A stretch of DNA of 64,000 nucleotides from Octopus vulgaris (Eukaryota). Position 1 is the stretch's first letter; the number at the start of each line of letters is the position of its first letter. A program made the translations under genes and the position numbers. A model generated the notes under the pieces. It saw only the letters and a list, made by a program, of their open reading frames with translations. It searched no databases and was not told the origin of the DNA. The DNA lies in contig OX597814.1 of assembly GCA_951406725.2 (NCBI GenBank), forward strand, positions 192,510,001-192,574,000, written 5' to 3'. This document shows positions 15 to 53,910 of this stretch, piece after piece.

Positions 15-57
15 GACACCTGAAGAAGGTTGGAGGTTGTATCAGCCGAAACGTGTT
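15..57 (+). ncRNA. Hammerhead-like motif (family A); helix III and cleavage site appear deleted
   Basis: gacac-CTGAAGA-a-ggttgg...tcagcc-GAAAC-gtgtt. Stem II ggttgg/tcagcc, stem I gacac/gtgtt. Confidence 0.5.
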
Positions 58-479
58 AACAACAAACAAAATGAGGACAAATATCTGTCGAATGTAAATA
101 ATGTATATAATTTGTCATCTCTTAAATATAGAACTGGATTGTTATGAGTTGATGCTTTTGTCAAATACAAAGTTTAGTGCCAATGATGATCAACTTTAAA
201 TCTCTCATCCAGTAACATCATGTGCTTATGACTCACCCAGCAACAGAGGTTGGAGGGTAACAGTTAGATACATTTTCAATCAAGATCAGAGCCTAAAGAA
301 TTGTGTTTTGGATCCTCTCTTTTGTGTGAATTTACCCTTTCATGCTTCCAATTTGAATAAAATAAGCAAGAAATTGCTTTCGAAAATGGAAGGCAACTTA
401 TATTAAGGATGTTCAATAGATAAAGCTGTCAATAGATAATTATAGACACCTACAAGACTATATACCATCTTTCCAACAA

Positions 480-850
480 CAACCTTGGGCACCTTTTAGA
501 ATTTGATATAGCTAACACCTGTTGACATGCTTACAAAATCAAAAAACAACACAGGACTCATGACTTCCAGAAGCATCTTTTGACATTAAGAATTGCTGAA
601 GCATGGAATAAACTACCCACATCAGTTGTTAGCTGTTGGGACAATACATCCTTCAAAACTTCCATGCTTCCTGAAATTCACCAACAGTACACCTAATCCA
701 ACCCCAATCTTCCTTTTTTGATGACTCATTCACAGTTCATTTCCAGTGCATTTTGCTATATACTGTTTATGCACTTTTGGCCACCTTTTCTGATGAGTTA
801 TAGTGCACCTGAGCACTATAAACAATAGGGTCATTATTATTACTATTATT
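480..850 (+). mobile_element. CR1/L2-type LINE 3' fragment (other pieces: 15581..15965-, 51340..51577-, 60430..60570+ with 60948..61132+, 62300..62345-)
   Basis: Decayed HAYKIKKQH...FQKHLLTLRIAEAWNKLPTSVV...SFK C-terminal motif, shared 3' UTR (gtgcacctgagcact) and (ATT)n tail. Confidence 0.7.
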
Positions 851-861
851 TTATAACTGTG

Positions 862-1196
862 AAGGCACATAGCTCAGTGGTTAGAGCATCAAACTTACAA
901 TCATGAGGTCGTGAGTTCGAATCCCAGACTGGGCTGCGTGTTGTGTCTTGAGCAAGACACTTTATTTCATATTGCTCCAGTTCACTCAGCTGTAGAAATG
1001 AGTTGCGACGTCACAGGTGCCAAGCTATATCGGCCATTGCCTTTCCCTTGGATAACACTAGTGGCGTGGAGAGGGGAGGCCGGTATGGATGGGCGACTGC
1101 TGGTCTTCCATAAACAGCCTTGCCCGGACTTGTGCCTGGGAGGGTAACATTCTAGGTGCAATCCCACGGTCAATCATGACCGAAGGGGGTCTCAGC
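862..1196 (+). mobile_element. tRNA-derived SINE (related head near 59525..59700)
   Basis: A box tagctcagtggttagagc, B box gagttcgaatccc, followed by ttgagcaagacacttt core-like region. Confidence 0.7.
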
Positions 1197-1203
1197 ATTA
1201 AAA

Positions 1204-1467
1204 CTGTGTCGGTGGCATGTAAAAAGCACCAACTGATCGTGGCCATTGCCAGCCTCCCCTGGCACCTGTGCCGGTGGCACGTAAAAAGCACCCACTACAC
1301 TCACGGAGTGGTTGGTGTTAGGAAGGGCATCCAGTTGTAGAAACACTGCCAGATCAGACTGGAGCCTGGTGCAGCCCCTGGCTTCCCAGACCCCGGTCGA
1401 ACCGTCCAACCCATGCTAGCATGGAAAGCGGACGTTAAACGATGATGATGATGATGATAATGATGAT
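1204..1467 (+). mobile_element. (GAT)n-tailed repeat, the 3' end of an RTE-type LINE. Copies at 5421..5697-, 7841..7980-, 11905..12090+, 12596..12870+, 17848..18026+, 24061..24415-, 52650..53030-, 56373..56852-, 59808..60255+
   Basis: Shared gtaaaaagcacccactacactc...ggaagggcatccagctgtagaaac...atggaaagcggacgttaaac(gat)n, with variable 5' truncation. Confidence 0.8.
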
Positions 1468-1693
1468 ACTGTCATCTTAATCCAGAGAAAACATGTCAAT
1501 TGTCTATTTTATGCTTTTCAGCCTGGTTATGAATCCAATCGCAAACATGTACAGTTAGTTTCAAACATAATTTTAATGTTAAAAATACAAAAAGAAATGA
1601 AGAATTTTTCTTTATTAAAAACAGGAAAAAAATTTATAACATTTTTAATTGCCTGCAATGATTGTTTTTTTTAATGAATTCACATCTACTTAC

Positions 1694-1848: not shown

Positions 1849-2066
1849 CTGCAATAAATAAATAAACAAATAAATGAATAAATAAATAAAGGGAAATTTC
1901 AAAAGTACAGTGATTGCACAAGAAAGCATGAGAACTTCATCTATGCATTATTAATTAGTTGGAATAAGTAAAGGGGCTTGGAATCTTACTTCAAATTCAT
2001 GGAACTCACTCCTATAACTTCATAAGGATATTTACTTTCTCTAAGATATTTGAAAAACCTATATGT

Positions 2067-2156
2067 GATTTAGCTGATGAATACTTGACATTATATTTGC
2101 TGTAATATTTGCAGCTTGAAATAAAATGTTTATAGTATGAAACAATTGTACTAATC
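2067..2156 (+). ncRNA. Type I minimal hammerhead ribozyme motif (family B), predicted cleavage after GUA at 2150
   Basis: gatttag-CTGATGA-atact...agtat-GAAA-C-aatt-G-TA-ctaatc. Stem I gatt(t)ag/ctaatc, stem II atact/agtat, helix III with palindromic ACAATTGT. Confidence 0.8.
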
Positions 2157-2704
2157 TACCGATCCGTTCTTGTTGCTTTTTTCTTGGGGCTTATATATAT
2201 ATATATTATTATTATTACTATTATTATTATTATTCTATGTTTGACTTTTGCTTTATATTTGTACAAGTTGGCTCCAAGTCTCACCCAGAGACCTCAAGAG
2301 ACAACAGGTTGGAAGTTCATGTTGTTATGCCTAGTGTGCCATATATTTGTTTTTTTTTTTGGTGTTGTACTAGTGAATATCAAAAAAAAAAAAACCGAAA
2401 TTGTTTGTTTTAAACCCTGTTATTATTATAATAATAAAAATAACAGGGTTTAAAACAAACAATTTCGGTTTTTTTTTTTGATATTCACTAGTACAACACC
2501 AAAAAAAAAAACAAATATATGGCACACTAGGCATAACAACATGAACTTCCAACCTGTTGTCTCTTGAGGTCTCTGGGTGAGACTTGGAGCCAACTTGTAC
2601 AAATATAAAGCAAAAGTCAAACATAGAATAATAATAATAATAGTAATAATAATAATATATATATATATAAGCCCCAAGAAAAAAGCAACAAGAACGGATC
2701 GGTA

Positions 2705-2794
2705 GATTAGTACAATTGTTTCATACTATAAACATTTTATTTCAAGCTGCAAATATTACAGCAAATATAATGTCAAGTATTCATCAGCTAAATC
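2705..2794 (-). ncRNA. Inverted copy of the family B hammerhead (sense to the ACOT8 pre-mRNA, intron 3)
   Basis: Exact reverse complement of 2067..2156 within the 2048..2813 palindrome. Confidence 0.78.
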
Positions 2795-2943
2795 ACATAT
2801 AGGTTTTTCAAATTATTATTATTATTATTATTATTATTGTTTTTATCATGTGCTTTCACTGCACCATCAAGTGCAGCTGTGTGTGCCTTGGATATGTGCT
2901 GGGGTTTGTTGAGTTGTTCTTATTTTTACTGTATTGAAAGTGC

Positions 2944-2984
<41 letters not shown>

Positions 2985-3281
2985 TAGTAGATGTAACAGA
3001 GTGACTCAAGGACTGAGAGTTTCGTGTGTTAGCACTAATGTATGAAACCCTCAGCCGTTGAGTCACTCTGTTACTCCTACCAAATATAAATAAAATATAT
3101 ACATACATACACACTCATATTTTGAGTTTATATTTTCATGTTTGCATCACCAGACTCTTGTTAGTTAGTTAGTTAATTTGGCTCAAAAGCAAATAGCAAG
3201 GCCATGTAGGGGGACATGGAGTTAAGTACAGGGTGGTGTTCATGTAAAGAGTTCAGGCCACTTGAGGTCCAGGGAGGCTTT

Positions 3282-3315
<34 letters not shown>

Positions 3316-3386
3316 TACAGCATAGAAAAGACAAATAAGAAAGTCACCAATACTCATACATATAATATATACAGAAAATGTCCATA

Positions 3387-3551
3387 GGCGCAGGAGTGGC
3401 TGTGTGGTAAGTAGCTTGCTTACCAACCACATGGTTCCGGGTTCAGTCCCACTGCGTGGCACCTTGGGCAAGTGTCTTCTACTATAGCCTCGGGCTGACC
3501 AAAGCCTTGTGAGTGGATTTGGTAGATGGAAACTGAAAGAAGCCCGTCGTA

Positions 3552-3601
<50 letters not shown>

Positions 3602-3822
3602 CGTGTATGTTTGTGTGTCTGTGTTTGTCCCCCCAACATCGCTTGACAACCGATGCTGGTGTGTTTATGTCCCCGTCACTTAGCGGTTCGGCAAAAGAGA
3701 CCGATAGAATAAGTACTGGGCTTACAAAGAATAAGTCCCAGGGTCGAGTTGCTCGATTAAAGGCGGTGCTCCAGCATGGCCGCAGTCAGATGACTGGAAC
3801 AAGTAAAAGAGTAAAGAGAGAG
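3387..3822 (+). mobile_element. Abundant SINE with internal (TA)n(TG)n tract. Copies at 16551..16853-, 29619..30020+, 30515..31196-, 45084..45466-, 53603..54197+, 54704..55100+, 58740..59472-, 61444..61768-
   Basis: Head ggcgcaggagtggctgtgtggtaag...ggttcagtcccactg, ttgggcaagtgtcttct core, tail gaaacaagtaaaagag. Confidence 0.85.
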
Positions 3823-4059
3823 TATAGCTGTTGAATATATGTGGCTTGGTGATGTAACAACACTAAGTACAATGTGTAAATATATCTTAACTGTATATAT
3901 ACATACATGATATATTTGAAAAGATTTGTTTCAATAACTACATGTTTATATGATAAATATCCATCATTCTATTAGCAACAGAAACCTAAATAAATGTTTA
4001 AGATGAAGAAAAAATATTGTGTTTGTAATTACATTTTGAAGGATATATATTATATTGAA

Positions 4060-4460
4060 CTAGCAGTATCGCCCGGCGTTGCTCGGGTTTGTAAGGGAAA
4101 TAACTATATAAGCATTTTTAGAGAGTTATAGCCAAAAAATAGCAAAAAAATGCATTAAAAATGGGAAAAAAATTATGGTAAATTTTTTTTAAATCGTTGA
4201 CTCATCGTAGACATTTTTAGAGAGTTACTTCCCTTATATAATAGCGAAAAAATGCATTAAAATGGAAAAAAATGATGGCAAATTTTTTTTTTAAATCGTA
4301 GACTCATCGTAGATGCGCGCTAATACCCAGAAGGGCTCGATATGAATCACGACTATAGGATACCCGCTTTTGGTTAAACTGCACTGCAAAATGTGGGAGT
4401 AGTTAGGAATCTAAATCGTAGGAGACAGACAGCACACAACCTTACTTTTATATATAAAGA
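4060..4460 (-). mobile_element. Non-autonomous Helitron
   Basis: On the minus strand: 5' TC, 3' hairpin cccgagcaacgccggg plus CTAG, inserted between A and T. Same family as 18521..18829. Confidence 0.8.
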
Positions 4461-4835
4461 TTAAACTGAAGTAATAATTTTATAAACTCTTTTTTCTGAG
4501 GAATCAGGATATTCTTGAAAGATGTTCCTGTATGAATTTTTTTCTCCATAAATGGTGAAAAGTATAAGAATTCAACAGGAAGGAGAGGATACTTATGAAT
4601 ATATAAATGTGTGAGTGTGTGGTGGGTAGACACAGGCATGGCTCTTGGTGAGGGAAGAGCTGAGTAATTGAGATGTTCAACTCCCAACCACATGATAGAG
4701 ATAAGGGTTACTGAAAAGTAAGTAAAGGAGGAATTGGAGGATGTGAAGCTGCTGGAGGGGACAAAAATAGTAGCCCTGGCAGTAAAGATAGCTACATACG
4801 TGCACAAACATATACATAATTACACCCACATACAG

Positions 4836-4891
<56 letters not shown>

Positions 4892-5171
4892 TCACTCACA
4901 CACACACTTATGCACACGTAAATATTATATATAAATTCAAAAGGGTATAAAATACCACATGCTAAAATCAGAGCCAATGCTCCAAAAACGACCATAAAAC
5001 TCACAATAAAGACACATACGAGCAATGCAATGAACATAGGAGAAACAGTAATGGTGTGAACTTGTGAGAAATAACAGTAATAATACTATATATATATATG
5101 TGTAATAATAATAATACTATATATAGTAATAATATATATATATTTATATATATATATATATATATATTGTG

Positions 5172-5221
<50 letters not shown>

Positions 5222-5270
5222 AATAATATATATGTATATGCATATATACATATGTATATGTACATACATC

Positions 5271-5322
<52 letters not shown>

Positions 5323-5910
5323 TATGTGAGCACAGGGTGTCATGAAACATGTACAACAAAAAAGTATGAAGCATGAGTACATGGAACATGAACTATTCTT
5401 TCGAACAACAAAGACACAAATCATCATCATCCTCATCATCGTTTAATGTCTGCTTTCAATGCTAGCATGGCTTGGACGATTTGACTGAGGTCTGGCGAAC
5501 CAAATGGCTGCACTAGGCTCCAATCTTGATCTGGCAGAGTTTCTACAGCTGGATGCTCTTCCTAACGCCAACCACTCCGAGAGTGTAGTGGGTACTTTTA
5601 CATGCCACCGGCACGAGGGCCAATCAGGCAGTACAGGCGATGGCCACGCTCAAATGGTGTTTTTTATATGACACCTGCACAGGAGCCAGACCTCGTTTGA
5701 ATATTTTTAAATGGAAAACAAAACAAACATCATAAAGAACAACCCTTCATCAGTTGTTGGCTGGTTTTCTAACCTTGTATTTCGAGCATTTAACAACAAT
5801 ATATATATATATAATTATTAGTATTATGGAATTTATTTCCGAGTCAACAAGAAAGAGAAATTCAATTTAGTGGTACTAAAATGCATTTCCCACTGTATTT
5901 TAAATACATA

Positions 5911-6089
5911 GATAGGTTTAAGAGACAGAACCACCTTCAAGCAACTCAATCAATATTGAACGACATTATCTATGATAGAGATATATAAGATTAAATATTT
6001 GATATTCAATCGTATATATCTCTATCATAGATAATGTCGTTCAATGTTGATTGAGTTGCTTGAAGGTGGTTCTGTCTCTTAAACCTATC
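5911..6089. repeat. Fold-back palindrome, 77-bp arms (1 mismatch), next to (TA)n
   Basis: gataggtttaagagacag...gagatatata and its reverse complement; coordinate sum 12000. Confidence 0.9.
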
Positions 6090-6093
6090 AATC

Positions 6094-6126
<33 letters not shown>

Positions 6127-6175
6127 AAGAAAATGAGATGACAAAGGAAAAGATGATTATCTTATGAACTTCATT

Positions 6176-6258
6176 AGCTTACAACTGTTTCTGCAATAAG
6201 ATGCAATGGATTCGTAGTTGAGTGCTTGAATAACACCCCTTATAGCTTCATCAGAACC
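6176..6258 (-). ncRNA. Type I minimal hammerhead motif (family E), slightly degenerate
   Basis: Minus strand ggtt-CTGATGA-a-gctataag...cttattgc-a-GAAA-C-agtt-G-TA-agct. The element is bounded by (TA)n on both sides (about 6093-6119 and 6325-6362). Confidence 0.65.
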
Positions 6259-6320
6259 TTGATTATGAAGTGTAATTTATTTGGGAAAAGAACTATGTTT
6301 ATGCATATATAGGGGTATGT

Positions 6321-6368
<48 letters not shown>

Positions 6369-6379
6369 TATATAGAAGG

Positions 6380-6430
6380 AGCTTCTACAGGACTAGAACT
6401 GTTTCATTCAAGAGAAATCTTCAGGAAGCT
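6380..6430 (-). ncRNA. Type I hammerhead motif (family F), sense to the ACOT8 pre-mRNA
   Basis: Reverse complement of the 51-nt motif at 7667..7717. Confidence 0.8.
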
Positions 6431-7036
6431 AGTTAACAAGAATTGTATTGGCATTTATACATTTAGGCAGGTTTATAGGGGTGGTGGTGGGGGACTTTTT
6501 GGGGGTAGGCATAGCGCAAAAAATCATACTTGGGGGAGTGGTCAAGGAGTCAGTGGTAAATTAGATAGAAGAATAAATAAAAGAATAAAAAAAGAATAAA
6601 AAAATATAAAATTATATAGAAGAATAGAGTTTTAGGTAAATAAGGAAATTCTCAACACACACACGTATGTGTATATACGTGTATGTATGTAGATGTATGT
6701 ATGTATGAATATAATGCGTGCGTGCGTGTATGTGTATGAGTGTATGAATGAGAGTGTGTGTGCGTGCTAATGAGTGTGCGTGCGTGAGTGAGTGCTTGTG
6801 CTCAAGTAGAAAGATAAAAGGGACTAGCCAAGATGTTTGTGACCAGCGGTCAAAGATAACAAAAGTAATAAATGAAGATAATAAAATTAAAATTAGGGAA
6901 TGGGTTTGTAATTGTATGTATATATGTGTGTATGTGTAGGTATGAATAGGTACACATATGTATGTATGTATGTGTATATATGTGTATGTGTGTGTGTGTA
7001 TACATACATATATGTGTATGAGTGGGTACACATATG

Positions 7037-7097
<61 letters not shown>

Positions 7098-7301
7098 ATA
7101 CATACATATATGTGTATATGTATATATGAGTATATAGGGACTTGTGTGTTGTGTGTGCATGTGTGTATGTGGATATGTGTGTGTATGTGAGTATGTGTAT
7201 GTGTGTGTATGTATATATTTCTTTGTGTGTATGTGTGGTCGTGTGTGTGTATATATACATGTGTGTGTGTATATGTATATGCATGTATATGTGTATGTAT
7301 G

Positions 7302-7332
<31 letters not shown>

Positions 7333-7357
7333 ATATGTGTAGATATATGTATGTATA

Positions 7358-7400
<43 letters not shown>

Positions 7401-7666
7401 GTTGTGTGTGTATGTATGTGTGTATGTATATGTGTGTGTGTTGAGAATTTCCTTATTTACCTAAAACTCTATTCTTCTATATAATTTTATATTTTTTTAT
7501 TCTTTTTTTATTCTTTTATTTATTCTTCTATCTAATTTACCACTGACTCCTTGACCACTACCCCAAGTATGATTTTTTTGCGCTATGCCTACCCCCAAAA
7601 AGTCCCCCACCACCACCCCTATAAACCTGCCTAAATGTATAAATGCCAATACAATTCCTGTTAACT

Positions 7667-7717
7667 AGCTTCCTGAAGATTTCTCTTGAATGAAACAGTT
7701 CTAGTCCTGTAGAAGCT
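7667..7717 (+). ncRNA. Type I hammerhead motif (family F), predicted cleavage after GUA at 7711
   Basis: agcttc-CTGAAGA-t-ttc-tctt-gaa-t-GAAA-cag-ttctagtc-ctg-TA-gaagct. Perfect 6-bp stem I, 3-bp stem II, helix III cag/ctg. Confidence 0.82.
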
Positions 7718-7800
7718 CCTTCTATATAATAAATTAATTTTACTCTGCTATGTATTGAGTACCTTATTTACTGTGGTTAACCCCGAATCAACCCGGGACC

Positions 7801-7843
<43 letters not shown>

Positions 7844-7976
7844 TCATCATCATTTAGCGACCGCTTTCCATGCTAGCATGGGTTGGACGGGTCAACTGGG
7901 GTCTGTGAAGCTGGAAGGCTTCGTCAGGCCCAGTCAGATCTGGCAGTGTTTCTACGGCTGGATGCCCTTCCTAACG

Positions 7977-8016
<40 letters not shown>

Positions 8017-8245
8017 GAGGCGCAATGGCCTAATGGTTAGGGCAGCGGACTCGCGGTCGCAGGATCGCGGTTTCGATTCTCAGACCGGGCGTTGTGTGTG
8101 TTTATTGAGCGAAAACACCTAAAAGCTCTATGAGGCTCCGGCAGGGGGTGGTGATCCCTGCTGTATTCTTTCACCACAATGGCGGTGCCCCAGCATGGCC
8201 ACAGCTCAAGAGCTGAAACTGGAAAAACAAAAACAAACAAAACAA
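8017..8245 (+). mobile_element. tRNA-derived SINE. Copies at 11302..11680+, 23395..23580-, 46750..47046-, 60770..60946-, 62950..63227-
   Basis: A box tggcc(c/t)a(g/a)tggttagggc and B box ggtttcgattc(c/t)c, with a shared body. Confidence 0.8.
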
Positions 8246-8319
8246 TATAATATATATATGTATATATATATATAAATATATATATGTATGTATATATATT
8301 CACACACATGCACTTACAC

Positions 8320-8354
<35 letters not shown>

Positions 8355-9095
8355 TCAAACAATGATATAGTCATAAACATGTGTGCATGCACCCCCCCCC
8401 ACACACACACACACACAGGTATGCATGCATAGTTAAGAAGTCTGCTTCACAACTAAGATTTCAAGTTCAGTCCCACTTCATAGAAGCTTGAGCAAGTATC
8501 TTTTACTATAGACCTGGACTGTCTAAAGCCTTGTGAGTAGATCTGATAGACAGAAACTGAAAGAAGCATGTCATGTGTGTATGTAGAAGTATGTATTCAA
8601 AACTGTCCAAGGGTGGTCGTGCACATCTTTACATTTCCTCAGTCACCCCGCAAAGCCATTAAAAAATCAATAGAAGTGACTTTTTTGTGAATTTTCTATC
8701 CATAACCCAATCAAAATGCCCGAAACTTGATACACCAATTGAATGCCAGCTAGCTGTATGTGATTGGTCAGAGATTTGGACAGTACTCGCATGTATGTGC
8801 ACACACACGCAGCTGTATATGGATGCATTAGCACTATGACCCGGCGTTGCCAGGTCATAGTGCTAGTATCAGATAAATTAGTAAGAGAATGGCCCATAGC
8901 AAAATGTCAGCAGTTTGTATCCCACTGCTAGTAGATCACTATGTCTATAGCAAAAAGACTTCAATTTCAAACAGCATATTCCACACAACTATAAATACAT
9001 AGCAAGGTATAGCACACCAGAGTACACTACTGCAGGCAGTGCATGCACTAACTATTTGATGTTTTGTTAACAAAATATTAAAAGATTATATAAAC

Positions 9096-15583: not shown

Positions 15584-18520
15584 AATTATTGTATACAGTG
15601 CTCAGGTGCACTACAACTTGTCAAAAGTGCGTATAAATCATATGCAGTAATGTACAAATGTCTGGAAAGTGAACAGTGTATGAGTCAGATACATGCTTGC
15701 GTGTGTATGGAAGGGAGAAAATCAGGTGTAGTGTTGGCAAATCTCAGGAAGCATGGAAGTTTTGAAGGATGCAGTGCTCGGACAACTAACAACTGATGCC
15801 GGCAGTTTGTTCCATGCTTCAGTAACTCTTAGCGTGAAAAAAAGGTTTCCGAAAGTTATGGGAGCTGTGCTGTTTTCTGACTTTGTAAACATGTCCACGG
15901 GTGTTAGACAGGTGGAGTTTGAAAAGGTGCTCAGTTATTGTTAGTAAGATTAATTAATAATTTTATGGTCAAGAAGTTAGTTTTCTAATCATGTGGTCCC
16001 ACTGTGCAACACCTTGAACATGTGTCTTCTGCTACAGCCCGTTGTGAGTGAATTTGGTAGATGAAATATGTTATTCATATTCTGATATTATCATAACTGA
16101 GAAGGATGTTGTGTAAGAAATAAAACTCATTTTTTACCAATTGCACAATTTTCTGAAATGTACATACTAAATGCATTCAAAATAGCAATGCTTAGTTTGA
16201 CTTCATTGTATGTGTGTGTATGTACACATGTGCACACACACACACACACACACAATGAAGTAATTTAATATGTACATTTTAGATAACTTTGCAATTGAGA
16301 AAAAATGAGTTTCATCTCAAAATGAATGAGTTTGTTTGTCCCCAATAACTATTTGACAATTGGTGTTTGTTTGTTTATGTCCCTGTAACTTAGTGGTTTG
16401 ACTAAAAGAAGCTGATAGTACAAGTACCAAACTTTAAAAAAAAGTACTGGGGTTGATTTGTTTTTGATTAAACCTTTTAAGGTGGTGCTCCAGCATGGCA
16501 GCAGTCCAATGACTAAAACGAGCAAAGGATAAAAGATAAAGATTTATTTATTTATCTTTTGTTTCAGTCATTAGATTGTGGCCATGCTGGAGCACTGCCT
16601 TTTACTGAACTGTTAAGTTACAGAGATGTGAACAAACCAACACCAGTGGTGGAGGAAAAACACAGACACAAACATACACACACACACACATATACAATGG
16701 GCTTCTTTCAGTTTCCGTCTACCAAATCCACTCACAAGGCTTTGGTCAACCTGAAGCTATACTGGAAAACACTTCGCCAAGGTGCCAAGCAGTGGAACTG
16801 AACCTGGAACCATGTGGTTAAGAAACTAACTTCTAACCACACAACCACACTAGTGCCTTTGAGAAATAATACAATTTTCAATTTTCTTTTTTGAGATAAG
16901 AGTCATATTCTACAAGACATTATAATTTCCATTACTAGCATATCTAATTCTTAATACATTCCAACAGATTCGAACATGAATATGTTAATTACAGCTGTAT
17001 TTTGTTAGAGGAGAACAATTTCTGTTATGACAAAACTCTGATCCATTAGAAGTTGATTCATTAGCACTTGCTGATGAATCTTCCAGAATGCATCAGGAAT
17101 AAATATGCTGTTCACTGCTCATAATTTATTCATAATTTATAATTTCTAAAAACTTTTGTATTTGGTTTGTAAGATTTTTATATGTAAAATGCATTTTGTT
17201 TTATCATATGAGGATTATTATGCCAAATATTCTTTGCTTTTTTGTTTTGTTTTAGAATACTCTAAGCTTTGATCTAAGTAGTGGAAAATGTGCCTTCTGC
17301 TTTATCATCTGAATTTGGCAAGATTCAGACTCTTTCATTAAACATTGTATGTATAATGATCCATTCAAGTTAGAAACAGAATTCTTGTAAGCTATAAACA
17401 TATAAGTTTTTAATTGGTTGAAATTGAAACTTTTAGGTGAAGAAAAGTAATTAGCGCTAAAGAAAATTGTTTTCAAGGCGGGAAAGGGTGAGAACACACA
17501 ATATTCCAATCAATAAATAATTAAGTGTAAATATGCAGCAGGGGAATGAACCTGTTCTCTGAGGACATGGTTCAGTTATATTTGACCTTTTCAACATGTA
17601 TATGTGTGTGTATGTATACATACAAATATATAGATGTATATACAGATTAGGAAATAATTTTATTCTTAAACACAGGATAATGCTAATAATATAGCACGAA
17701 CAGGATAAACTATACATATTTTGCATTGTACCAATGTATGAAGTTTATGAACTATGAGCAATAACAAACCTTGAACTTCATACATTGCTATGCATTTCTC
17801 TACATCAGATTCTCTGTACATCTCCACATAAAATTTTCCTACCTATACGTAAAAAGCACCCACTACACTCACGGAGTGGTTGGCGTTAGGAAGGGCATCC
17901 AGCTGTAGAAACACTGCCAGATCAGACTGGGTCTGGTGCAGCCTTCTGGCTTCCCAGACCCCAGTTGAACCGTCCAACCCATGCTAGCATGGAAAACGGA
18001 CGTTAAATGATGATGATGATGATGATATTCTCTTACTTATATGCTTTATATTTGTCTCTGATGATGGAATACCCAGTATATGTAAATGTGGATCAACATT
18101 TTGATCCATTATCCCAGAAACAGCTGTAAGACACTGTTATTTTTATGTTTGCTTACTTTGCTTCAGCATTAAATTAATCTAAATGAACTGATAAGCTTGT
18201 CTTGCCTTGATTTTGTCTTCCTCTTCTTTAAATTACACTTACTGACTTGAAGGTAGGTTGCAGATCGCTGGTTTTCTCCCTACTGGACTGTGGCTACCAC
18301 AACTCCAGCCCCCCACCCCCTTGTGAACTTGGGTCCTAGTAGCTTATCAACTGGAGCACTCACACTGCATACCTATTAGTTTAGGTTACCAGTGACCTAA
18401 ACTCTTCTTCTATATATGTGCATGTGTGTGAGATATATGTATATACATTTATATGGTGATTCCCATCATGAATCAGAGCTGAAATACTTAAAATATGTGG
18501 TGGTGTGGGTTATTGTCTTA

Positions 18521-23963: not shown

Positions 23964-24841
23964 AATATATATATATATACATACATACATATATACATAT
24001 ACATATACATACATAGAGACACACACACACACATATATATATATACATATACCCATATATCATCATCATCATCGTTTAACGTCCACTTTCCATGCTGGCA
24101 TGGGTTGGATGGTTTGACTGAGGTCTGCCAAGCCAGTGGGTTGCACCAGGCTCCAATCTGATCTGGTAATGTTTCTACAGCTGGGTGCCCTTCCTCACGC
24201 CAGAGAGTATAGTGGGTGCTTTTTACATGCTACTGGCATGGGAGCCAGTCAAGGGGCACTGGCATCAACTATGTTTAGACGGTGCTTTTTACATGCCATT
24301 AGCACGGGAGCCAGTCAGAGGGCACTGGCATCGACCACATTCAGTTGGTGCTTTTTATGTGCCACCAGCACAGAAGCCAGTCAGGCGGCAGTGGCCACAG
24401 CTATGATTTCAAGATATATATATATATGTATGTATGTATATATATACATACACACTCACACAAACACACACATATCATCACAATGTATCATAATTCTGGA
24501 AAAGAAGAACACTCTAAAACAGGCAGAAGGCCCGAAACTTTTTGGGAGGTGGGGCCCCCACTCGATTAGATTAACCCCAGTACACAACTGGTACTTAATT
24601 TATCGACTCCAAAAGGATGAAAGGCAAAGTCAATCTCAGTGGAATTTGAACTCAGAAAGTAAAGACAGAAGAAATACTGCTAGCCTGGTGTGCTAACGTT
24701 TCTGCCAGCTTGCCACCTTAGAGCAGTAAAGTAATAAAGTTAATGTCGGGCCATAGTGTGACCAATGGTTTCGCATCCACAAAGGCCTTAGCCTCACAAA
24801 CATCTCAGCAGATTCTAAAGAGTTGAATTTGTCTTCAGCTT

Positions 24842-28648: not shown

Positions 28649-28653
28649 GAAGG

Positions 28654-28832: not shown

Positions 28833-28863
<31 letters not shown>

Positions 28864-30704: not shown

Positions 30705-30740
<36 letters not shown>

Positions 30741-30750
<10 letters not shown>

Positions 30751-31012
30751 TTCGAGACAAAACCACTATTTTGCAAAACAAACAAGGAAAGACTTAATCA
30801 ATGCATAAAAATTTTTAATATAAAGAAATTTAATATAAGAAATTTCTTTATATTAAAAATTTTTATGTATTGATTAAGTCTTTCCTTGTTTGTTTTGCAA
30901 AATAGTGGTTTTGTCTCGAATTAATATTATATAATATTTTACTATAAAATTGGATTTAATCCTAAATCTGATTTTTTCCCTGTAAATTTGGATTTATTCC
31001 CTAATATTTATT
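30741..31012. repeat. Fold-back palindrome (91-bp arms 30741..30930, 1 mismatch, 8-nt loop) plus one-sided tail, inserted in the (TA)n tract of a SINE
   Basis: Coordinate sum 61671; (TA)n on both sides. Confidence 0.9.
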
Positions 31013-31286
31013 ATATATATATATACATACATATATACGACGGGCTTCTCTCAGTTTTCGTCTACCAAATCCACTCACAAGGCTTTGGTTGGACGGTGGC
31101 TATAGTAGAAGACACTTGCCCAAGGTGCCATGCAGTGGGACTGAACCCAGAACCATGTGGTTGGTAAGCAAGCTACTTACCACACAGCCACTCCTACACA
31201 CAAAGTTAAAATTTTATTTATTAAGAATGTAAATAGTGTTCCGTTGGAGAGACTAGTGAGTCTGATTTATGGCAGTTATGATAACA

Positions 31287-31329
31287 ACTCCAGACATGTT
31301 TCAGGCTTATAGATTTTCTTCAGTGAAAC
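31287..31329 (-). ncRNA. Degenerate minimal hammerhead motif (family J)
   Basis: Minus strand gtttca-CTGAAGA-aaatctataagcct-GAAA-C-at-G-TC-tggagt. Helix III is the palindrome ACATGT (dimer type); stem II is poor. Confidence 0.5.
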
Positions 31330-31413
31330 TTAGGTCGCACAGTGGCTACAGTAGTCTTAAACCAATAATGATCTGTTATGATGAAGAGACTGAGTGAGGA
31401 GCCCATTTGTGGT

Positions 31414-31875: not shown

Positions 31876-32381
31876 ATGCACTCACATACATGTGCGTGTG
31901 CACATGCATACTTACACGCCCCCGCACACACACACAGACACATTTATATGACAAACTTCTTTCAGTTTCCATCTACCAAATCCACTCACAAGGGTTTATT
32001 ATTCTACCAAATATATACGTTTTATTTTTTTTTTTGCACATTACTTAATCATTGGTATATTTTTTATCTTATATTTAATATTTCTATTATATGTAATTTT
32101 CTAGATGGTGTAATTTAATTTTTCATTTTGAATTGATAAAAGGTGGTTTTTTTTCTAATTTATATATATATATGTATGTATATATAATATATATATACCC
32201 GTGTAAGCACATAAATGTGAAACAAGGTGAGGAAAATAGTACTCGAATTTTGGAGGTAGAGTAATATGATTTATTATTAAAGCTGCAAAAACATCACAAA
32301 AAACTGCTACTCAGAGTTTCATATTCCTGTCCATCGAGCAGTTGTAATCAAGAACTGCTTAATGAATGGGAACATGATTGC

Positions 32382-32423
32382 AACTGCCCGGTGAACAGGA
32401 AGGTGAAATTCTGAGTAGCAGTT
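32382..32423 (+). ncRNA. Decayed hammerhead motif (family I); inverted partner at 32302..32343
   Basis: aactgc-ccggtga-acaggaaggt-GAAA-ttctgag-TA-gcagtt. Perfect stem I, core mutated in both copies, plus a third partial copy aactgc-ttaatga near 32353. Confidence 0.5.
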
Positions 32424-32467
32424 TTTTGTGATATTCTTATGACATTTTTGCAGCTTTAATAATAATG

Positions 32468-32521
<54 letters not shown>

Positions 32522-38776: not shown

Positions 38777-40055
38777 TATGAGCGTGGGCTGAAAATTCGT
38801 GGGATGACTGTGAAGGAGTGATGCTAGAGCTGTGAAATCTTGCATGCATTAATTTCAGCCCTACTTACTAACCCCGCCTTAGCGTAGGCGGAGGTATTGT
38901 TTGTTTGTTTGTCCATGGACAAGATATCTCAAGAACCGCAGGATGGATTCGGACGAAACTTTCGGGAATGTTTGGCCTCATGACTGGCACAAACTGATTA
39001 GATTTTGGGATCAATCCGGTACCGGACAAGGATTCTGGATTATTTTTCCGATTTTTTTACTTAATTTTTGAGAGCAGTCGGGTTCATTTTTAGTATTCTC
39101 GTTTGTGAGAGCAGTCGAGTTCATTTCAGTATTCTCATTTGAAAAATCATCTCCGTCTAATCGCTGAGAGGACGTTGATGTTGCCTTGGCGGAGGTTTGC
39201 GCTTTCTGAGTGCTCTTGTTAATAATTGCATTGTTTCTTTCCAAGTTAACTGACATCTGACTGTTCAAAGACTTCGAAAGTAACAAGTAGCAACTTCGCT
39301 TGAAAATCGACAAAATTTGGCATCATGGTGTTATCAAGTAATTGTAGGAAAAGGGTTTAGCTCAAAACGACATTCAGGCTAACATGGTTGCTACACTAGG
39401 GAATGACGCTCCAGCTTTATCAAAAGTGTACAAGTGGGCAGCTGAATGTAAGAGGGGAAGGGAGAGTCTTGAAGATGACCCAAGGTTTGGACATCCTGAA
39501 ACCGCCACCACCAAGGAAAACATTGATCATGTTCACCACATGCTGAGGGATAACAGGCGATTGGCTATAAATCAAATAATCAATGCTATTAGCATATCCC
39601 GTGAGAAAATTGAGAATATTCTGCACAATGAGTTTGGCATGACGAAGGTTTCAGCTCAGTGGGTCCCACGTCTTCTGATACCTGATCAAAAGCACACCAG
39701 GCTGATCGTGTCACAAGAAAATCTGACATTATTTCAGGTAGATCCAGCTGGTTTCCTTGAACGTTTCTTAAGCCAGGATGAGTGCTGGGTTCTACACTTT
39801 TTGCCAGAGACAAAAAAAATAATCAGTGCAGTCAAAATACTCCTCCTCACCTGCTCCAAAGAAGGCCAAGATTGTTTCAACAGTAAGGAAAGTGATGGCT
39901 TCAGTTTTTCTGTGATGCAAAAGATGTGTTTATTGACTATCTTCAAAAAGATCACATCATCAATTTTATGGGGTAGTTATGAAAGGCTATCAAGACCAAA
40001 TGCCCAGGGAAAATGATGAAAGGGCCTTCTTTCATTAGAACAATGCTCCAGCATG
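38777..40055 (+). mobile_element. Decayed mariner transposon, interrupted at 38868..39221
   Basis: ORF 39384..40016: HTH region KVYKWAAECKRGRESLEDDPR.G, WVPRLL and QDECWV; decayed H..NAP near 40030. Confidence 0.88.
38868..39221 (+). mobile_element. Helentron/DINE-1-like non-autonomous element nested in the mariner
   Basis: 5' stem-loop ccgcct...aggcgg, a (TTTG)n tract, and a second ggcggagg subterminal repeat near the 3' end. Confidence 0.55.
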
Positions 40056-41589: not shown

Positions 41590-43192
41590 CAGATTGTGGA
41601 TAGTCGGTTTCAGCGTACGCGGACGACATCACCATCATCGTAATCGAAATGGATGACCTACAGATGGTAGGCAAGGCCATTGAAGAATACGAGACGGTGG
41701 CAGGAGCAAAGGTTAATCGTGAAAAGTCAGTCGGCTTGTAGCTCGGCACCTGGAGCGGCAAGTCGATGCCTCCTGACAGCGACGTGGGATGTTGGATGGA
41801 GAGTCCGATTAAATTGCTAGGAGTCTGGTTTGGATCAGGCCTCCAAACAGAGAAGAACTGGGCCGAGGTAGCGAATAGGGTGGCTCACATAGCCAAGACC
41901 TGGTCTTGGCGGTGGCTATCCCTGAAATGGAGGGCGGAGGTGGCCAATGTGTTCATCGCATCGGTCTTCACCAACCGCCTAACCGTCGTTCCTTGCCCTG
42001 ATTCGTGGTTGAGCAAGCTGGAAAGACAGCTCTTCTGCTTCTTGTGGAAGGGCTCGAATCCGCTTGTGAGACGCTCTATTTGCTGCCAACAACCGTTAAA
42101 GGATGGGCTAGGGATGCCTTGACTGATGATGTACAGGCACGCGCTGAGGTTGAGGCATCTGTGGCTCCATCTGGATGGTGATCGGGTGTGGTCTCCGCTA
42201 GCGAAACAGATGTTTCCCAAGTTCACTTGTTTCGGTGGACTGGATACCTGGTTCTATCGTAGATCAAAGTTGGGTAAATGGTTCACGGAGTGTCGTAAGA
42301 CCCTCCGGATATTCTATCTCTCGGGCGGCGCCTGCGGTAGTGGTCCTACCACATTCTTTTATAGAGAGTTGGGAGAGGAGAAATGTGACGATACCTTGGG
42401 GAAAGCCCTAGGTCTCGATGATAATTAGCTGCCCAGTCTGTTCCAACGTACATTCGGGCCGAAGACGATGGATAACTTCCAGAAGTCTTTGGCATGGCAA
42501 TGATACCGAGGAGCGTTACTTGTCCGGGACAAGCTCGCAAGGCATGGTGGCCCTGGCCCACTGACCTGTCCAAGATGTGGGCGGGACAGGGAAACCGTTC
42601 CGCACGCTATTGTTCAGTGTTCGGAGGTGGCAGATGTGTGGGTTTATGCCGAACAACTGTTGTCAAGTACAGGAAGAGTACAGCTATCGACTGAGTCAAT
42701 AGTAAAAATTGACCCACTGGATTTCCTATCGAAAGAAGGTAAGAATTGCTTTCTCATCGTAGTAGCAATTGCGAGAGAGGTGATTTGGAATACTCGAATG
42801 AAAGGGTTAATAACAGGCATTTTTATCTCTGGCCCTGGTTTGGTGAATTTTTTCACCTTCCACGTAAGAAGGAAAATAGGGTTAGAGAAAAAATAACTGT
42901 CCGCGAAAATGTTTCAAGATCGATGGAAGAATGTCGCGTATGGATGAAACTGCATGAATACAACGCAGGACGAACCCAAAGCATCAGTGGTGAGACGGGG
43001 CTCGTGGGGTCCGAGCATATCCCGCCTCCCCACTCCATTCTGTATTGTTGTCTTGCATATGTTATACTTCGAACTATTCATATTTATATAAAATTTTTAA
43101 ATTCATCTTTTTGTTAACTCATACAATAAATCTGACCCCATATCAGATTGTACTGTCCCCTCTTTGTTGTCCCCTTGTGGGAAATAAAAAGT
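41590..43192 (+). mobile_element. L1/Tx1-clade LINE 3' portion
   Basis: SAYADDI, GAKVNREKS, KLLGVWF, FLWKG, GLGMP and a CPRC-type knuckle; aataaa at 43183. Confidence 0.85.
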
Positions 43193-49331: not shown

Positions 49332-49752
49332 GGATCTTTTCGGTTTGAACGGCATTTTTTTCTAGGGTGTCATGAAATTGTCACCCATAATTATGACCCT
49401 AGTATCGATCTATTGCATTTCAATCTGTTTTAGGGTTAGGGTTCGGGTTAGGGGTGGGGGGAAGGGTATCTTTTTTTCTTCAGAAATGTAAATAAACCCA
49501 ATCTGTTTCTTAAACGAGGGACATTTTCATACGGCACAGAATGTTTTCACCTCAATAGACGTCATTGATTGGTTGAAATTGCAGAAATTGAAGAAGAAAA
49601 AACAACAAATATCTTACAAACTATAGAATTTTCTCAATAAAGCCAAGAGAAAAAGATGTTTTATAAACACATTCTACCAGTATACGAAGTTAAAAAGTGT
49701 TTAGTTACGTGGAAATTATTTTAAAAAACTGCCGGTCAAACCGAAAAGATCC
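49332..49752. mobile_element. Same Merlin-type MITE, opposite orientation
   Basis: Same TIRs and interior. No 8-bp TSD; flanked instead by a 122-bp direct duplication. Confidence 0.8.
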
Positions 49753-49957
49753 AGTAACTCCATAAAACATAAATGCTATGATACTTTGCATACATGATAC
49801 TATATTGTTATTAACGCTATATTTTCATCATCTCCACATTTTGAACTAAATCTTCGTCCCAAATATTGTGGGAAATTATGTACATCTGGCGACATCTGAT
49901 AATCTAGAAACTCATCGTGAAGCATTTTCAATTACATCGCTGAATAAAACAAATAAA

Positions 49958-50389
49958 GGATCTTTTCGGTTTGAACGGCAGTTTTTTTAAAATAATTTCC
50001 CCGTAACCAAACACTTTTAAACTTCGTATACTGGTAGAATGTGTTTATAAAACATAATTTTCTCTTGGCTTTCTTGAGAAAATTCTATAGTTTGTAAAAT
50101 ATTTGTTGTTTTTTTTTCTTCAATTTCTGCAATTTCAACCAATCAGTAACGTCTATTGAGGTGAAAACATTCTGTGCCGTATGAATATGTCCCTCGTTTA
50201 AGAAACAGATTGGGTTTATTTACATTTCTGAAGAAAAAAAGATACCATTTCCCCCACCCCTAACCCTAACTCTAACCCTAACCCTAAAATAGATTGAAAT
50301 TCAATAGATCGATACTAGGGTCATAATTATGGGTGACAATTTAATATGACACCGCTAGAAAAAAACTGTCGTTCAAACCGAAAAGATCC
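49958..50389. mobile_element. Same Merlin-type MITE with 8-bp TSD caaataaa, 248 bp upstream of the TSR3 ATG
   Basis: TSD at 49950..49957 and 50390..50397. Confidence 0.82.
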
Positions 50390-50637: not shown

Positions 50638-50782
50638 ATGGGTAAACAAAATACCCAGAAATCTCGAAAGAAGGCTAAAAATCCAGTTGAAACACCGCGA
50701 TCGGCACATAATCGTAAAAAACTCCGGCAAAACAAAAATGACGGCGTCAAAGTTAATGAACTCGGAGCAACTTTTGACAATG
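50638..50782 (+). CDS. TSR3: TSR3 exon 1 (basic N-terminus MGKQNTQKSRKKAKN...)
   Basis: ATG at 50638, donor AATG|gtaagt, 145 nt (phase 1), in frame with exon 2. Lys/Arg-rich leader as in eukaryotic TSR3. Confidence 0.85.
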
Positions 50783-50849
50783 GTAAGTAATGTTTTTTTT
50801 TACGGTCTCCTATTCTACGGTCGTAAAATAGATTAAGGAAACAATTTTG

Positions 50850-51060
50850 TTGAATTCATACCCACTCCACTATCGATCACTTCGTGAACTTCGTTGATCC
50901 GAATGATCTAGAAATACATACCCAACAAATTGTAGGTTTGTGGGACCACGCTAAAAAAGAAAATTGGTCGTCGGTGTAGGACGAGCCTAGAATTATTTCA
51001 CTCGTGTCTTTCAGAATTTATTTGGCTGAGTTGAACATTTTTCAGTCGAATATTACTAGC
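50850..51060 (+). pseudogene. Merlin/IS1016-like DDE transposase C-terminal remnant in TSR3 intron 1
   Basis: YTHSTIDHFVNFVDPNDLEIHTQQIVGLWDHAKK resembles the H.TVNHS.NFVDP...HTQ.IE..W...K motif. Confidence 0.65.
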
Positions 51061-53195
51061 AATTCGTGAACAAGATCCCTAATAATTTATATTTGGTGAT
51101 AAACTTCCTGGTGGTGGTAAAGAATACGTACATCACAGGTTTTCGGCGTTTAGGGTTAGGGTTACGCTGAAAACAGGAGGTATGCATATTCTTTTCCTCC
51201 GCCCAAAGTTTGTTTCTAGTATGATCCCTAAAATCCGTTTCTAATATTCGCAATTAACTCAGTCTGTGATACCATTATTGTGCTAATGTTGACGTTGCAT
51301 TCTTCGTGCATACTTGCACATGGATATAACTATATATAATGAAATTATTGTATACAGTGCTCAGGTACACCACAACTTGTCAGAAAGTGCGTATAAAGCA
51401 TATGCAGTAATGTACAAATGTCTGGAAAGTGAACAGTGTATGAGTCAGATACATGCTTGCGTGTGTATGGAGTCTCGACCACGGTCGAACAATGATGATG
51501 ATGATGTGTATGGAGTGGGGAAAATCAGGTGTAGTGTTGGCGAATCTCAGGAAGCATGGAAGTTTTGAAGGATGCAGGGAAGTACCAGTTTGAAGTAAGT
51601 ACAGTAGCTACTTTGGAGTAGGTCTGTATATTACCGTATTTATTCGTGTTTAAGGCACACTCACCACCCCTTGAATTTCTAAACCTTAAAATTAAGAGTG
51701 AGTGTTATACACGTGAACTAGCTCCGGGCAAAAAATATTGTGGATTTTGTCTTGATATATCTACTTATCGACCGATTTATTCATCCATCTGGCCATACAG
51801 GATGACAGTGCTGAGCAATGATGTGTGTAAATACAAACTTGTTACCAATTCAAATATGCTTGGGGTATATTCGAACTGCTTAAGAAAGCGATTCTCTGTA
51901 TTTTGTACTCTGATACCACAGTGTATATAAGGCAACATTACTCTATGGTGATGTGTTACTTGTTTTAGACAATCAGCCTGAGGAAACGTATTGAGTCACC
52001 ATTGTAAACAACAGCTGCACTTTACATTTGATAAATGTTTCTTTGGATTCCAATACACTTGAGTTTCATTCTTCTGTTGGATGTAACTCAAACAGGGATT
52101 AGATTTCATTGATTAAAGGTAGTTGAGTACAATGGCTCTGATCAAGAAAAAGGAAGTATTTTTTTTTCTGTCTTTTAGGCAGGGGAAAATGCAGTGCTCA
52201 TGACACTTTTCAGAGCCTCTGAGACTTTTGGAAGAGAGGGAGGAAGGTGTCCTTAAAGTGGAGACCTGGCCTGGGTGTTTGCACCAGAGTGGACTCTGCT
52301 TCAAGGCTCCAAGAGACCAAGTAATGGTATTAAACCAAGCAGTAGATCCAGTCTACCACCCAAATAATTGAATTATTCATTTGATTGTGAGTCCCATGAG
52401 TCAGAGTAGCTGTGTCCAGCTCATCTCCCTCACCATCCTCCAAGACATCTTTTCTGTGAGGCAGTCTGAATTAGAGGAAATTGTTCATTCAACTCCTTAA
52501 TGTAAAGTTACTCCATATAAATTGGTCTGTTTCTCTCTAACATGCTAGAAATATAAAGAATAAAGAAAATGGTGGAAGAGAGAGAGAGAACAGTTTAATA
52601 GTTCCGTGTTGGTGCTTAGAGCGGAGATATCTTTGTAATTGCATGGATATCATCATCATCATAATTTAACGTCTGTTTTCCATGCTAGCATGGGTTGGAC
52701 GGTTCGACTGGGGTCTGGGAAGCCCGGAGGCTCTAATCTGATCTGGCAGTGTTTCTACAGCTGAATGCCCTTCCTAACGCCGACCACTCTTTGAGTGTAG
52801 TGAGTGTTTTTTACGTGCCACTGGTACAGAGGCCAGAGGAGGCTGGCAACAGCCACGACTGGTTGGTGCTTTTTACATGTCACCGGCATGGAAGCCATTC
52901 AAGGCAGCGCTGGCATCGGCCACATTCGGATGGTGATTTTTACATGCCAACGGCACAGGTATCACAACTACAATTTCCATTTGATTTTTATTTTGATGTT
53001 GATGTACTTGACTCAATATGTCTCCTCAGGCTGATTGACTAAAACAAGTAACACACCACCATAGAATAATGTTGCCTTATATACACTAAGCCAGAGAGGT
53101 AAATGACAAGGTAATTACAACTGAGCATTTTTGGTCATAGATTTGCTGTGTTAAAGCTGACCTGAGGCTTAAACTTGTTTCTATTTTCGTTTCAG

Positions 53196-53406
53196 AAGAA
53201 AATACTTCTCAATGTTCATCAAATTCTGCTGAAAACAAAATACCATTTCCTTTGGCCATGTGGGACATGGAGCAATGTGATCCAAAAAAATGTTCTGGCA
53301 GGAAGTTAGTGCGATTAAATTTGGTTAAAACTCTTAATTTACACCAAAGATTTTCTGGTATCATTTTGACTCCAGAAGGGAAAAAATGTGTTTCTCCTGA
53401 TGACAG
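53196..53406 (+). CDS. TSR3: TSR3 exon 2: ...IPFPLAMWDMEQCDPKKCSGRKLVRLNLVKTLNLHQRFSGIILTPEGKKCVSPDD(R)
   Basis: Acceptor tttcag|AA, donor ACAG|gtaagt, 211 nt. LAMWD...CDPKKCSGRKL is the TSR3 N-terminal signature. Confidence 0.96.
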
Positions 53407-53822
53407 GTAAGTTTTGTATGATTCTTAAAAATTAACATATTGTAAACATGTAAGTATTTTACTGAGAAAAGTTACAAACTTATTGGGTTTCACAATATCC
53501 CTCTCACATACTGATTATTCATTATTGTCATGGAATTCCTCATAATGTATCCATTGGGTGTTGTATGCCTGTGTTTGTTCACAGAAATAAAAAAAACCTA
53601 CTTAGGTGTAGGAGTAGCTGTGTGGTAAGTAGCTTGCTTACCAACAACATGGTTCCGGGTTCAGTCCCACTGTGTTTCGCCTTGGGCAAGTGTCTTCTAC
53701 TATAGCCTCAGGCCAACCAAAGCCCTGTGAGAGGATTTGGTAATTGGAAACTGAAAGAAACCCATCATATATATGTATATATATATATACTCAAAATAAG
53801 CAACAAGGATATCCAAAGGTAG

Positions 53823-53910
53823 TGTAGTACAATCGTTTCATGCTACTTCATTTAATTAAACAATGTAAGTAATGCATCAGTTTTAAAATGTAGAGCAATC
53901 TTCAGCCACA
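53823..53910 (-). ncRNA. Type I minimal hammerhead motif (family M) in TSR3 intron 2, antisense to TSR3
   Basis: Minus strand tgtgg-CTGAAGA-t-tgct...agca-t-GAAA-C-gatt-G-TA-ctaca. The element (53790..53956) sits in the (TA)n tract of a SINE. Confidence 0.72.

Follow-up and report, generated by a model that had tools for sequence, protein, structure and literature searches.

Penelope-like elements of the Hydra clade have been reported to carry hammerhead ribozymes and to insert in (TA)n; among them is the Octopus bimaculoides element Hydra-1_Obim (Craig et al. 2021, PMC8557442; here and below, comparisons concern the accessible parts of the papers cited). The clade is marked by DKT in place of DKG, an RWK-type motif, the absence of GxKF/Y, a CxCx5C linker, and CxxC and CxH motifs around conserved E and N residues, with CCHH absent. 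Inverted pseudo-long terminal repeats (pLTRs) and a one-sided tail are also described in that paper. Here, we analyze a 64,000-nucleotide stretch of Octopus vulgaris DNA (contig OX597814.1, positions 192,510,001 to 192,574,000; hereafter, the window), which holds type I hammerhead motifs of families that we call A to I. These motifs very likely mark the 3′ pLTR ends of 5′-truncated, often head-to-head insertions of endonuclease-bearing Penelope-like elements, which would arise from two reverse transcription events, one primed on each strand of a (TA)n target that has been cut.

The in vitro reaction of Poseidon PAc of Anolis provides the closest biochemical precedent. The PAc enzyme, a predicted dimer, cuts AT-rich DNA on both strands and extends each; two internal reverse transcriptase (RT) start sites define the tail; the template is uncut RNA; and ribozyme cleavage is dispensable (Frangieh et al. 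2024, PMC11167929). Penelope-like elements conserve the hammerhead even though it is dispensable for insertion in vitro. Family A supplies thousands of young, near-identical insertions with countable ends.

Hammerhead Motifs of the Window

A relaxed type I descriptor, demanding exact CUGANGA, GAAA and UH, a stem I of at least 4 bp and a stem III, finds 11 matches in the window. The mean in 100 local dinucleotide shuffles is 0.17 (maximum 2), and none of eight decoy cores gives a match. With a strict descriptor, three motifs are found, against 0.01 in shuffles. The original prediction, made from the letters of the window alone, had named shuffled sequence as the check on its motifs, and their frequency is far above it. 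Nine of the 14 sites that it claimed pass the relaxed scan (2070+, 2707-, 6176-, 6380-, 7667+, 24842+, 28654-, 31286- and 53823-). The other five fail as written: 15+ has a 3-nt loss at helix III and the cut site, 24754- and 32302- have core changes, 28701+ has two single-base losses, and the core of 32382+ reads CCGGTGA. These five are damaged copies of families that have hammerhead-reading members elsewhere. One further match, 18053–18133+, had not been claimed before, and a weak one, 52965- (score 12), probably reflects chance.

The stems were said to differ between families and still to pair. This is borne out: the fetched loci together yield 106 distinct matches in 34 such clusters, with the reservation that pairing is itself a scan requirement and is thus partly built in. 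The descriptor demands neither C15.2 nor a palindrome; C15.2 is present in 28 of the 34 clusters, and helix III is perfectly palindromic in 15. Judged by sequence, then, the window motifs are genuine type I hammerhead sequences. An Rfam scan of the window gave no hammerhead among the 150 of 182 matches listed, which are microRNA-like noise from repeats.

Coding Parents of Families A, B, D and F

The window copies of family A (6363–7803 and 28638–28835) have many genomic relatives that are 99–100% identical. The long ones contain an open reading frame (ORF). In locus L183, a 722-residue open frame (5745–7910) begins 106 nt downstream of a hammerhead, and the intact natural ORF (5772–7910) has 713 residues. 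The family A unit is ~5.2 kb and is found in tandem on C1 and C8, as expected of pLTRs. Its layout is as follows: hammerhead, a single ORF encoding RT, linker and GIY-YIG endonuclease, a ~3-kb microsatellite 3′ untranslated region (UTR), and a second hammerhead. In a search with the family A RT, 150 matches, 80–100% identical, were scored out of 12,390 first-look candidates. The pLTR and ORF of family A are both represented in contigs of four sequencing runs presumed to be RNA, although strand, ends and level are not deducible from contigs.

The family A protein has RWR at residue 38, DKT at 116, YRDD, CxCx5C at 567, YIG, CxxC at 667 and CxH at 695. A motif scan finds no GxK[FY] in it, and by eye CCHH is absent. 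CxCx5C is also found in families B (L197) and F (L199). Upstream of the hammerhead end, family B is linked to RT and endonuclease in L193 and L197, and family F to the endonuclease in L199. A single family D copy, L207, has an endonuclease fragment upstream (E 1.8e-6). The domain calls for family A rest on these motifs and on two homologs, P0001 and P0040, which pass the Pfam GIY-YIG cut-off; NCBIfam assigns no family. By their protein motifs, families A, B and F appear to be Hydra-clade elements. An assignment of family A to the Neptune type was dropped after its motifs were compared with the criteria of Craig et al. (PMC8557442).

The full-length copies with RT and GIY-YIG domains that the original prediction proposed to look for thus exist for family A, and fragments exist for B, F and D. 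Its derivation of the motifs from Penelope-like elements stands for A, B and F, and for D at one locus, and it can be narrowed down to the Hydra clade in the case of A, B and F. By tblastn, no Penelope ORF is found in the window, as it had stated. Its second suggestion, a population of non-coding ribozyme cassettes mobilized by Penelope, is not needed for these families, whose window copies are 5′-truncated ends of coding elements (for D, at the one locus). The ~200-bp palindrome at 28638–28835 is the sole candidate for a self-propagating cassette.

Like the Hydra clade, family A combines a single ORF having RT plus a GIY-YIG domain at its C terminus, DKT, RW(K/R), CxCx5C and CxxC/CxH with a canonical hammerhead and (TA)n targets. 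It differs in its length of 5.2 kb, Hydra elements being generally <3 kb, in its ~3-kb microsatellite 3′UTR, to which the excess length is due, and in its clear tandem pLTRs. Nor is family A the same as Hydra-1_Obim: three exact motifs are absent from the accessible supplement of PMC8557442, and the hammerhead listed there differs. Families B and F depart from the clade in another way, as they carry asparagine-rich (AAT)n inserts. These inserts lie between RT and endonuclease (L193 6465–7337, L197 and L199) and resemble those in Penelope of Adineta (Arkhipova et al. 2013, PMC3846280).

Near some B or F copies, and not clearly part of them, sit RT fragments that do not match family A (L194 2959–3699, L203 978–1433 and L220). 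We take these to belong to another Penelope type, Poseidon- or Naiad-like.

The genome sample used for density comprises 44 systematically placed 10-kb stretches of the 2.8-Gb genome. In four full copies of family A, the 3′UTR is 2.9–3.3 kb long and 65–70% simple repeat, as against 11% in the genome sample. The unique islands within it keep the same order from copy to copy. The microsatellite inside 6363–7803 is the element's own 3′UTR cargo and not host DNA. A full copy thus spreads ~2 kb of microsatellite. Young copies of Penelope in penaeid shrimp likewise move internal simple sequence repeats (Yuan et al. 2021, PMC7878876); the difference is that in family A ~65% of a 3-kb 3′UTR is microsatellite.

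In the family A ribozyme, helix III spans 16 nt, with 4 bp and an 8-nt loop that contains the palindrome CTAG; U-U closes helix II. A single base of the helix III loop distinguishes two subfamilies.

Insertion Ends, Tails and Junctions of Family A

An exact 32-nt motif of the family A ribozyme has 7,648 copies, and one exact palindromic junction is present at 673 loci; controls gave 0 in both cases. The 5′ ends of the arms were measured, relative to the cut site, on the first 100 motif matches on C1. Of these ends, 58 lie at -35 to -49, that is, in the core and stem I, the 5′ edge of the ribozyme. Another 9 lie at -24 to -34 and 7 at -50 to -99, and 26 arms are longer. The edge-ending arms are split evenly by tail type, 29 having the long tail and 29 the short one. 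Gapped re-mapping of 50 short-insertion loci, 44 of them with an inverted partner, gives 94 ends; 62 of these lie at -35 to -50, and the 5 nt on either side of the cut site hold none. Family A copies that reach the ORF start do not begin at the cut site: they either extend across the upstream ribozyme or have their start at +25, -63 or -80. In stubs lacking an inverted partner, the end lies at about -29 to -59, and some of these stubs retain upstream sequence of the parent. Young family A mostly leaves ~200-base hairpins ending at the outer edge of the ribozyme.

The 3′ ends are equally regular. In 92 of 94 arms, (AT)4 follows. Of the 44 inverted pairs, 41 combine a long tail (~+93) with a short one (~+23) (p=2e-9 against 0.5; the pairs include loci picked by earlier queries, and arms of one insertion are not independent). 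Taken together, the end counts point to a template that stays uncut during copying, to the use of both start sites in each pair and to a halt at the 5′ edge of the ribozyme.

Two simpler or variant schemes were set aside. A single cDNA folding back on itself cannot make pairs in which the short-tail arm is the longer one, and in 5 of 18 long inverted pairs it is longer by >100 nt; this rules out fold-back as the general mechanism. The use of two RNA molecules per insertion, suggested by L333/L334, was dropped, as the odd arm shares the subfamily tail base.

Five of seven shorter arms measured in family D lie at 60–75 (ribozyme 58), near the edge, and family H clusters partly. The D and H loci were selected by query, so edge clustering in these families is not counted as evidence.

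A Proposed Twin-Priming Model

We suggest the following series of events. The enzyme, a predicted dimer, would nick both strands of a (TA)n target. Each target end would prime one cDNA, and the two would begin at different RNA start sites, both downstream of the uncut ribozyme. Synthesis of each would proceed through the ribozyme and usually halt at its 5′ edge, perhaps due to folding of RNA or cDNA there. The two cDNAs would then be joined, often via the self-complementary AGCT.

The palindrome at 28638–28835 folds as one long hairpin at -90 kcal/mol (z -19.7). At this stability, palindromic hairpin copies are predicted to be locked and inactive as ribozymes. It is likely that the ribozyme is under selection in the source elements and that most genomic copies are passengers. 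Both twin priming and a structural role for the ribozyme can be tested directly with the intact 713-residue ORF. If transcribed, the family A hairpins would be perfect double-stranded RNA, which could matter for RNA editing. The octopus is known for heavy RNA editing.

Several findings weigh against this account, as follows. The constrained hammerhead fold lies 1.2 to 13.6 kcal/mol above the minimum free energy in all 11 matches, folded as monomers, and none of nine window monomers folded has a significant z-score. Dimerization and protein-assisted folding are known for ribozymes of Penelope-like elements. On the protein side, Pfam calls neither GIY-YIG nor RT on the full family A protein, and RVT_1 reaches just E=0.025 on a partial one. 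Upstream ORF searches gave nothing for family C (25 loci and three 10-kb extensions), family E (7 loci) and family H (20 loci, 1.5 kb), in family G an endonuclease fragment lies downstream, not upstream, of a copy, and family I has no ORF link so far. As for the ends, the 32-nt sampling motif is blind to primary arms shorter than -24, and the single-base losses of one arm may stem from misreading at palindromes, in which case the variety of junctions is overstated. Finally, arms of the CTGATGA type are skewed, with 2 long and 26 short as against 24 and 36 for the others (p=0.002; arms not independent), and in a few palindromes (L404, L381 and L214) the left arm is truncated on its outer side, a few nt past the centre. 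The skew and the truncated arms both fit the proposal considered next.

Alternative Explanations

In the alternative that survives best, which we consider doubtful, the ~200-bp double-hammerhead palindrome is itself a non-autonomous element that propagates. It would be transcribed, and twin priming would regenerate the same exact junction. The 673 identical junctions, the scarcity of ends at -50 to -99, the almost entirely short CTGATGA-type arms and the outer-truncated left arms all agree with this, as do private variants common to both arms (L405, L412, L418 and L341). Against it, three or more subfamilies share this junction and agree with long copies at their diagnostic bases, and L399 is a long copy of the CTGATGA type, indicating that the junction arose repeatedly from parents. 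Non-inverted stubs also end in this region, and the RNA would form a -90 kcal/mol hairpin across the very stretch to be copied. An extended reading is put forward equally tentatively: Hydra-type elements may spawn a self-reproducing palindrome, with the ribozyme fold as a stop and joining signal for the twin-priming enzyme, a structural and not a cutting role. If true, the palindrome would be a minimal non-autonomous retroelement with a structural, non-cutting ribozyme.

It is unlikely that self-cleavage sets the element ends, the template being cut at the hammerhead and copies starting there. Core and stems are conserved in young families, and L031, L214 and L361 have a few extra bases, possibly the reverse complement of the post-cut strand; a cut-and-religated circle may be a variant of the scheme. 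On the other side stand the empty interval around the cut site and the starts of the ORF-reaching copies, both given above, and every 3′ end lies 20–95 nt past the cut.

Less probable still is an origin of the palindromes by collapse of longer inverted insertions, or as artefacts of long reads or assembly. One arm often has single-base losses, and the 2048–2813 duplication, flank included, is 100% identical and gained no confirmation from contigs of other runs. Read chimeras are not expected to give the strict asymmetry of long and short tails or (TA)n at both ends, however, and old, diverged pairs share the architecture. For collapse in particular, deletion offers no reason for a halt at the ribozyme edge.

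An origin of the motifs as non-LTR retrozymes, in which the hammerheads of tandem non-coding repeats give rise to circular RNAs, is very improbable: one 359-bp tandem array elsewhere in the genome does hold seven canonical-hammerhead copies, partly inverted (L219 ~2270–4763; C2, 10.0 Mb), and retrozymes are argued to stem from pLTRs (Li et al. bioRxiv 10.64898/2026.07.22.740005), but direct tandem arrays contain none of the window motifs, coding elements are the source of families A, B and F, and the inverted window pairs give no transcript with two same-sense ribozymes close together.

Density and Microsatellite Association

The genome sample contains 24 good hammerhead matches, against 0–1 in each of eight shuffles; 7 of the 24 lie in one tandem array. 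Leaving out the stretch with the array, there are 17 matches in 430 kb (43 stretches), or ~1 per 25 kb, which extrapolates to ~110,000 hammerheads genome-wide (Poisson range 65,000–175,000). The window, with 9 good matches in 64 kb (1 per 7 kb), is roughly 3-fold richer than the sample. The density of about one motif per 5 kb that the original prediction gave for the window includes damaged copies, in a stretch richer than the genome sample.

A (TA)≥5 tract lies within 150 nt downstream of 6/9 window matches (background 10.7%, p=9e-5) and 7/17 genome-sample matches (background 12.4%, p=0.003). The claimed association with microsatellites is real as an enrichment, but "almost all" is too strong. 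All five inverted duplications claimed for the window were recovered. Four are head-to-head; the fifth, at 2048–2813, is tail-to-tail for its hammerhead family and includes flank that is not part of the element.

Comparison with Other Hammerhead-Bearing Elements

That truncated, inverted ends of Penelope in (TA)n bear hammerheads was known already. What appears to be new, as read from the genome sequence and for family A alone, is the clustering of 5′ ends at the ribozyme edge (58/100), the 673 exact junctions, the pairing of long with short tails (41/44) and the ~65% microsatellite 3′UTR. In the literature within reach, which left out most subscription papers, we found neither ribozyme-edge breakpoints nor strict start-site pairing, and no paper on octopus hammerhead numbers. 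The words "ribozyme" and "hammerhead" are absent from the accessible main text of an octopus repeat-annotation paper (PMC13282606).

PAc resembles family A in that both strands are extended, two RT start sites are used, the RNA is uncut and the targets are AT-rich. The accessible parts of the PAc paper (PMC11167929) report no strand difference in start site, whereas nearly all family A pairs use one each, and they do not describe a halt at the 5′ edge of the ribozyme.

The Penelope of Adineta vaga shares with the octopus elements the head-to-head inverted pLTR, palindromes at junctions and an optional tail at one end (PMC3846280). The Adineta cases differ in that they are few copies, explained by self-priming on an antisense template, with no link to ribozyme position in the text accessible.

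The pLTR hammerheads of metazoan Penelope-like elements also come in many sequence families per genome, mostly as single truncated copies, with opposite-strand pairs 100–700 bp apart and a palindromic helix III (Cervera and de la Peña 2014, PMC4209133). In octopus, helix III is longer (up to 16 nt) and helix II is often long. The octopus estimate of ~110,000 copies compares with 2,000–9,000 in that work, the descriptors being different.

Non-LTR retrozymes, too, are high-copy type I hammerheads (Cervera and de la Peña 2020, PMC7229834; Li et al.), reaching up to 120,000 in the axolotl (PMC7229834), and in one retrozyme family the base of helix II carries the U-U that family A also has. Retrozymes form direct tandem repeats, whereas the window elements are single or inverted. 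The L219 array looks like a typical non-LTR retrozyme.

Elements in the Window

The elements of the window are collected in Table 1.

Table 1. Hammerhead-bearing elements in the window, by position.
Element	Position	Strand	Details
Family I Penelope-type 3′ end	1–135	+	Damaged hammerhead 15–57; beside (AAT)n
Family B 3′ end	1976–2187	+	Hammerhead 2070–2154, predicted cut after 2150; then (TA)n
Inverted family B end	2671–2813	-	Hammerhead 2707–2791
Family G 3′ end	6128–6311	-	Hammerhead 6176–6258, stems weakened
Family A short-tail arm	6363–6668	-	Hammerhead 6380–6430; ends ~23 nt past cut site in (TA)n
Family A long-tail arm	6663–7803	+	Hammerhead 7667–7717, cut after 7711; tail ends at 7803, followed by (TA)n; includes microsatellite-rich remnant of the 3′UTR
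Family C 3′ end, old	18047–18233	+	Hammerhead 18053–18133
Family D head-to-head pair	24727–24937	both	Hammerhead 24842–24905 (+); damaged partner ~24754–24817 (-)
Family A ~200-bp palindrome	28638–28835	both	Two hammerhead arms joined at stem I AGCT, in (TA)n; minus arm intact (28654–28704), plus arm with two single-base losses
Family E remnant	31276–31333	-	Hammerhead 31286–31330, stem II broken
Family H head-to-head pair	32198–32472	both	Long tail left, short tail right; lies in (TA)n; the two hammerheads (32302-, 32382+) are damaged
Family F 3′ end	53786–53944	-	Hammerhead 53823–53910; then (TA)n

The families differ in how well they have kept the hammerhead. The scan is passed by 20/25 copies of family F, 7/20 of family G, 5/25 of family C, 3/12 aligned copies of family I, 2/20 of family H, and 1/7 of family E, for which just seven matches were found. 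The family I copy extends ~40 nt into the upstream neighbour of the window. The family D pair is old and diverged, with arms (24727–24932) that are 83% alike.

The family C core mixes CTGATGA, CCGATGA and CCAATGA, and the most frequent core of family H is CCGAYGA. Both families often read CCGA(T/C)GA, alongside CTGA and CCAA variants (10/20 in family H, 6/25 in family C). Their sequence pattern, that of CpG decay, suggests a U4C core in the source elements.

The duplication at 2048–2813 has two 345-nt arms (2048–2392 and 2469–2813), 100% identical, that comprise the family B end plus flank. No source locus is found among the top matches, and none of the contigs of four other runs (three presumed to be DNA, one of unspecified kind) spans it. 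It may have arisen by local duplication or be an assembly error. At its centre, a repeat of very high abundance folds back on itself (2235–2626, in (ATT)n); no hammerhead was found in this fold-back.

Two more head-to-head fold-backs lie in (TA)n at 5800–6099 and 30738–31015, each with one long and one short tail and no internal ribozyme. Relatives of the latter have a hammerhead further upstream (L105). By eye, we take the broken ORFs at 39348–40016+, 40581–41499- and 41742–42896+ to be a mariner-type transposase and two RT fragments of non-LTR retrotransposons. At 49372–50345 is a ~970-bp element resembling a miniature inverted-repeat transposable element, without a hammerhead match, the terminal inverted repeats of which are 92–95% identical and contain CCCTAA runs.

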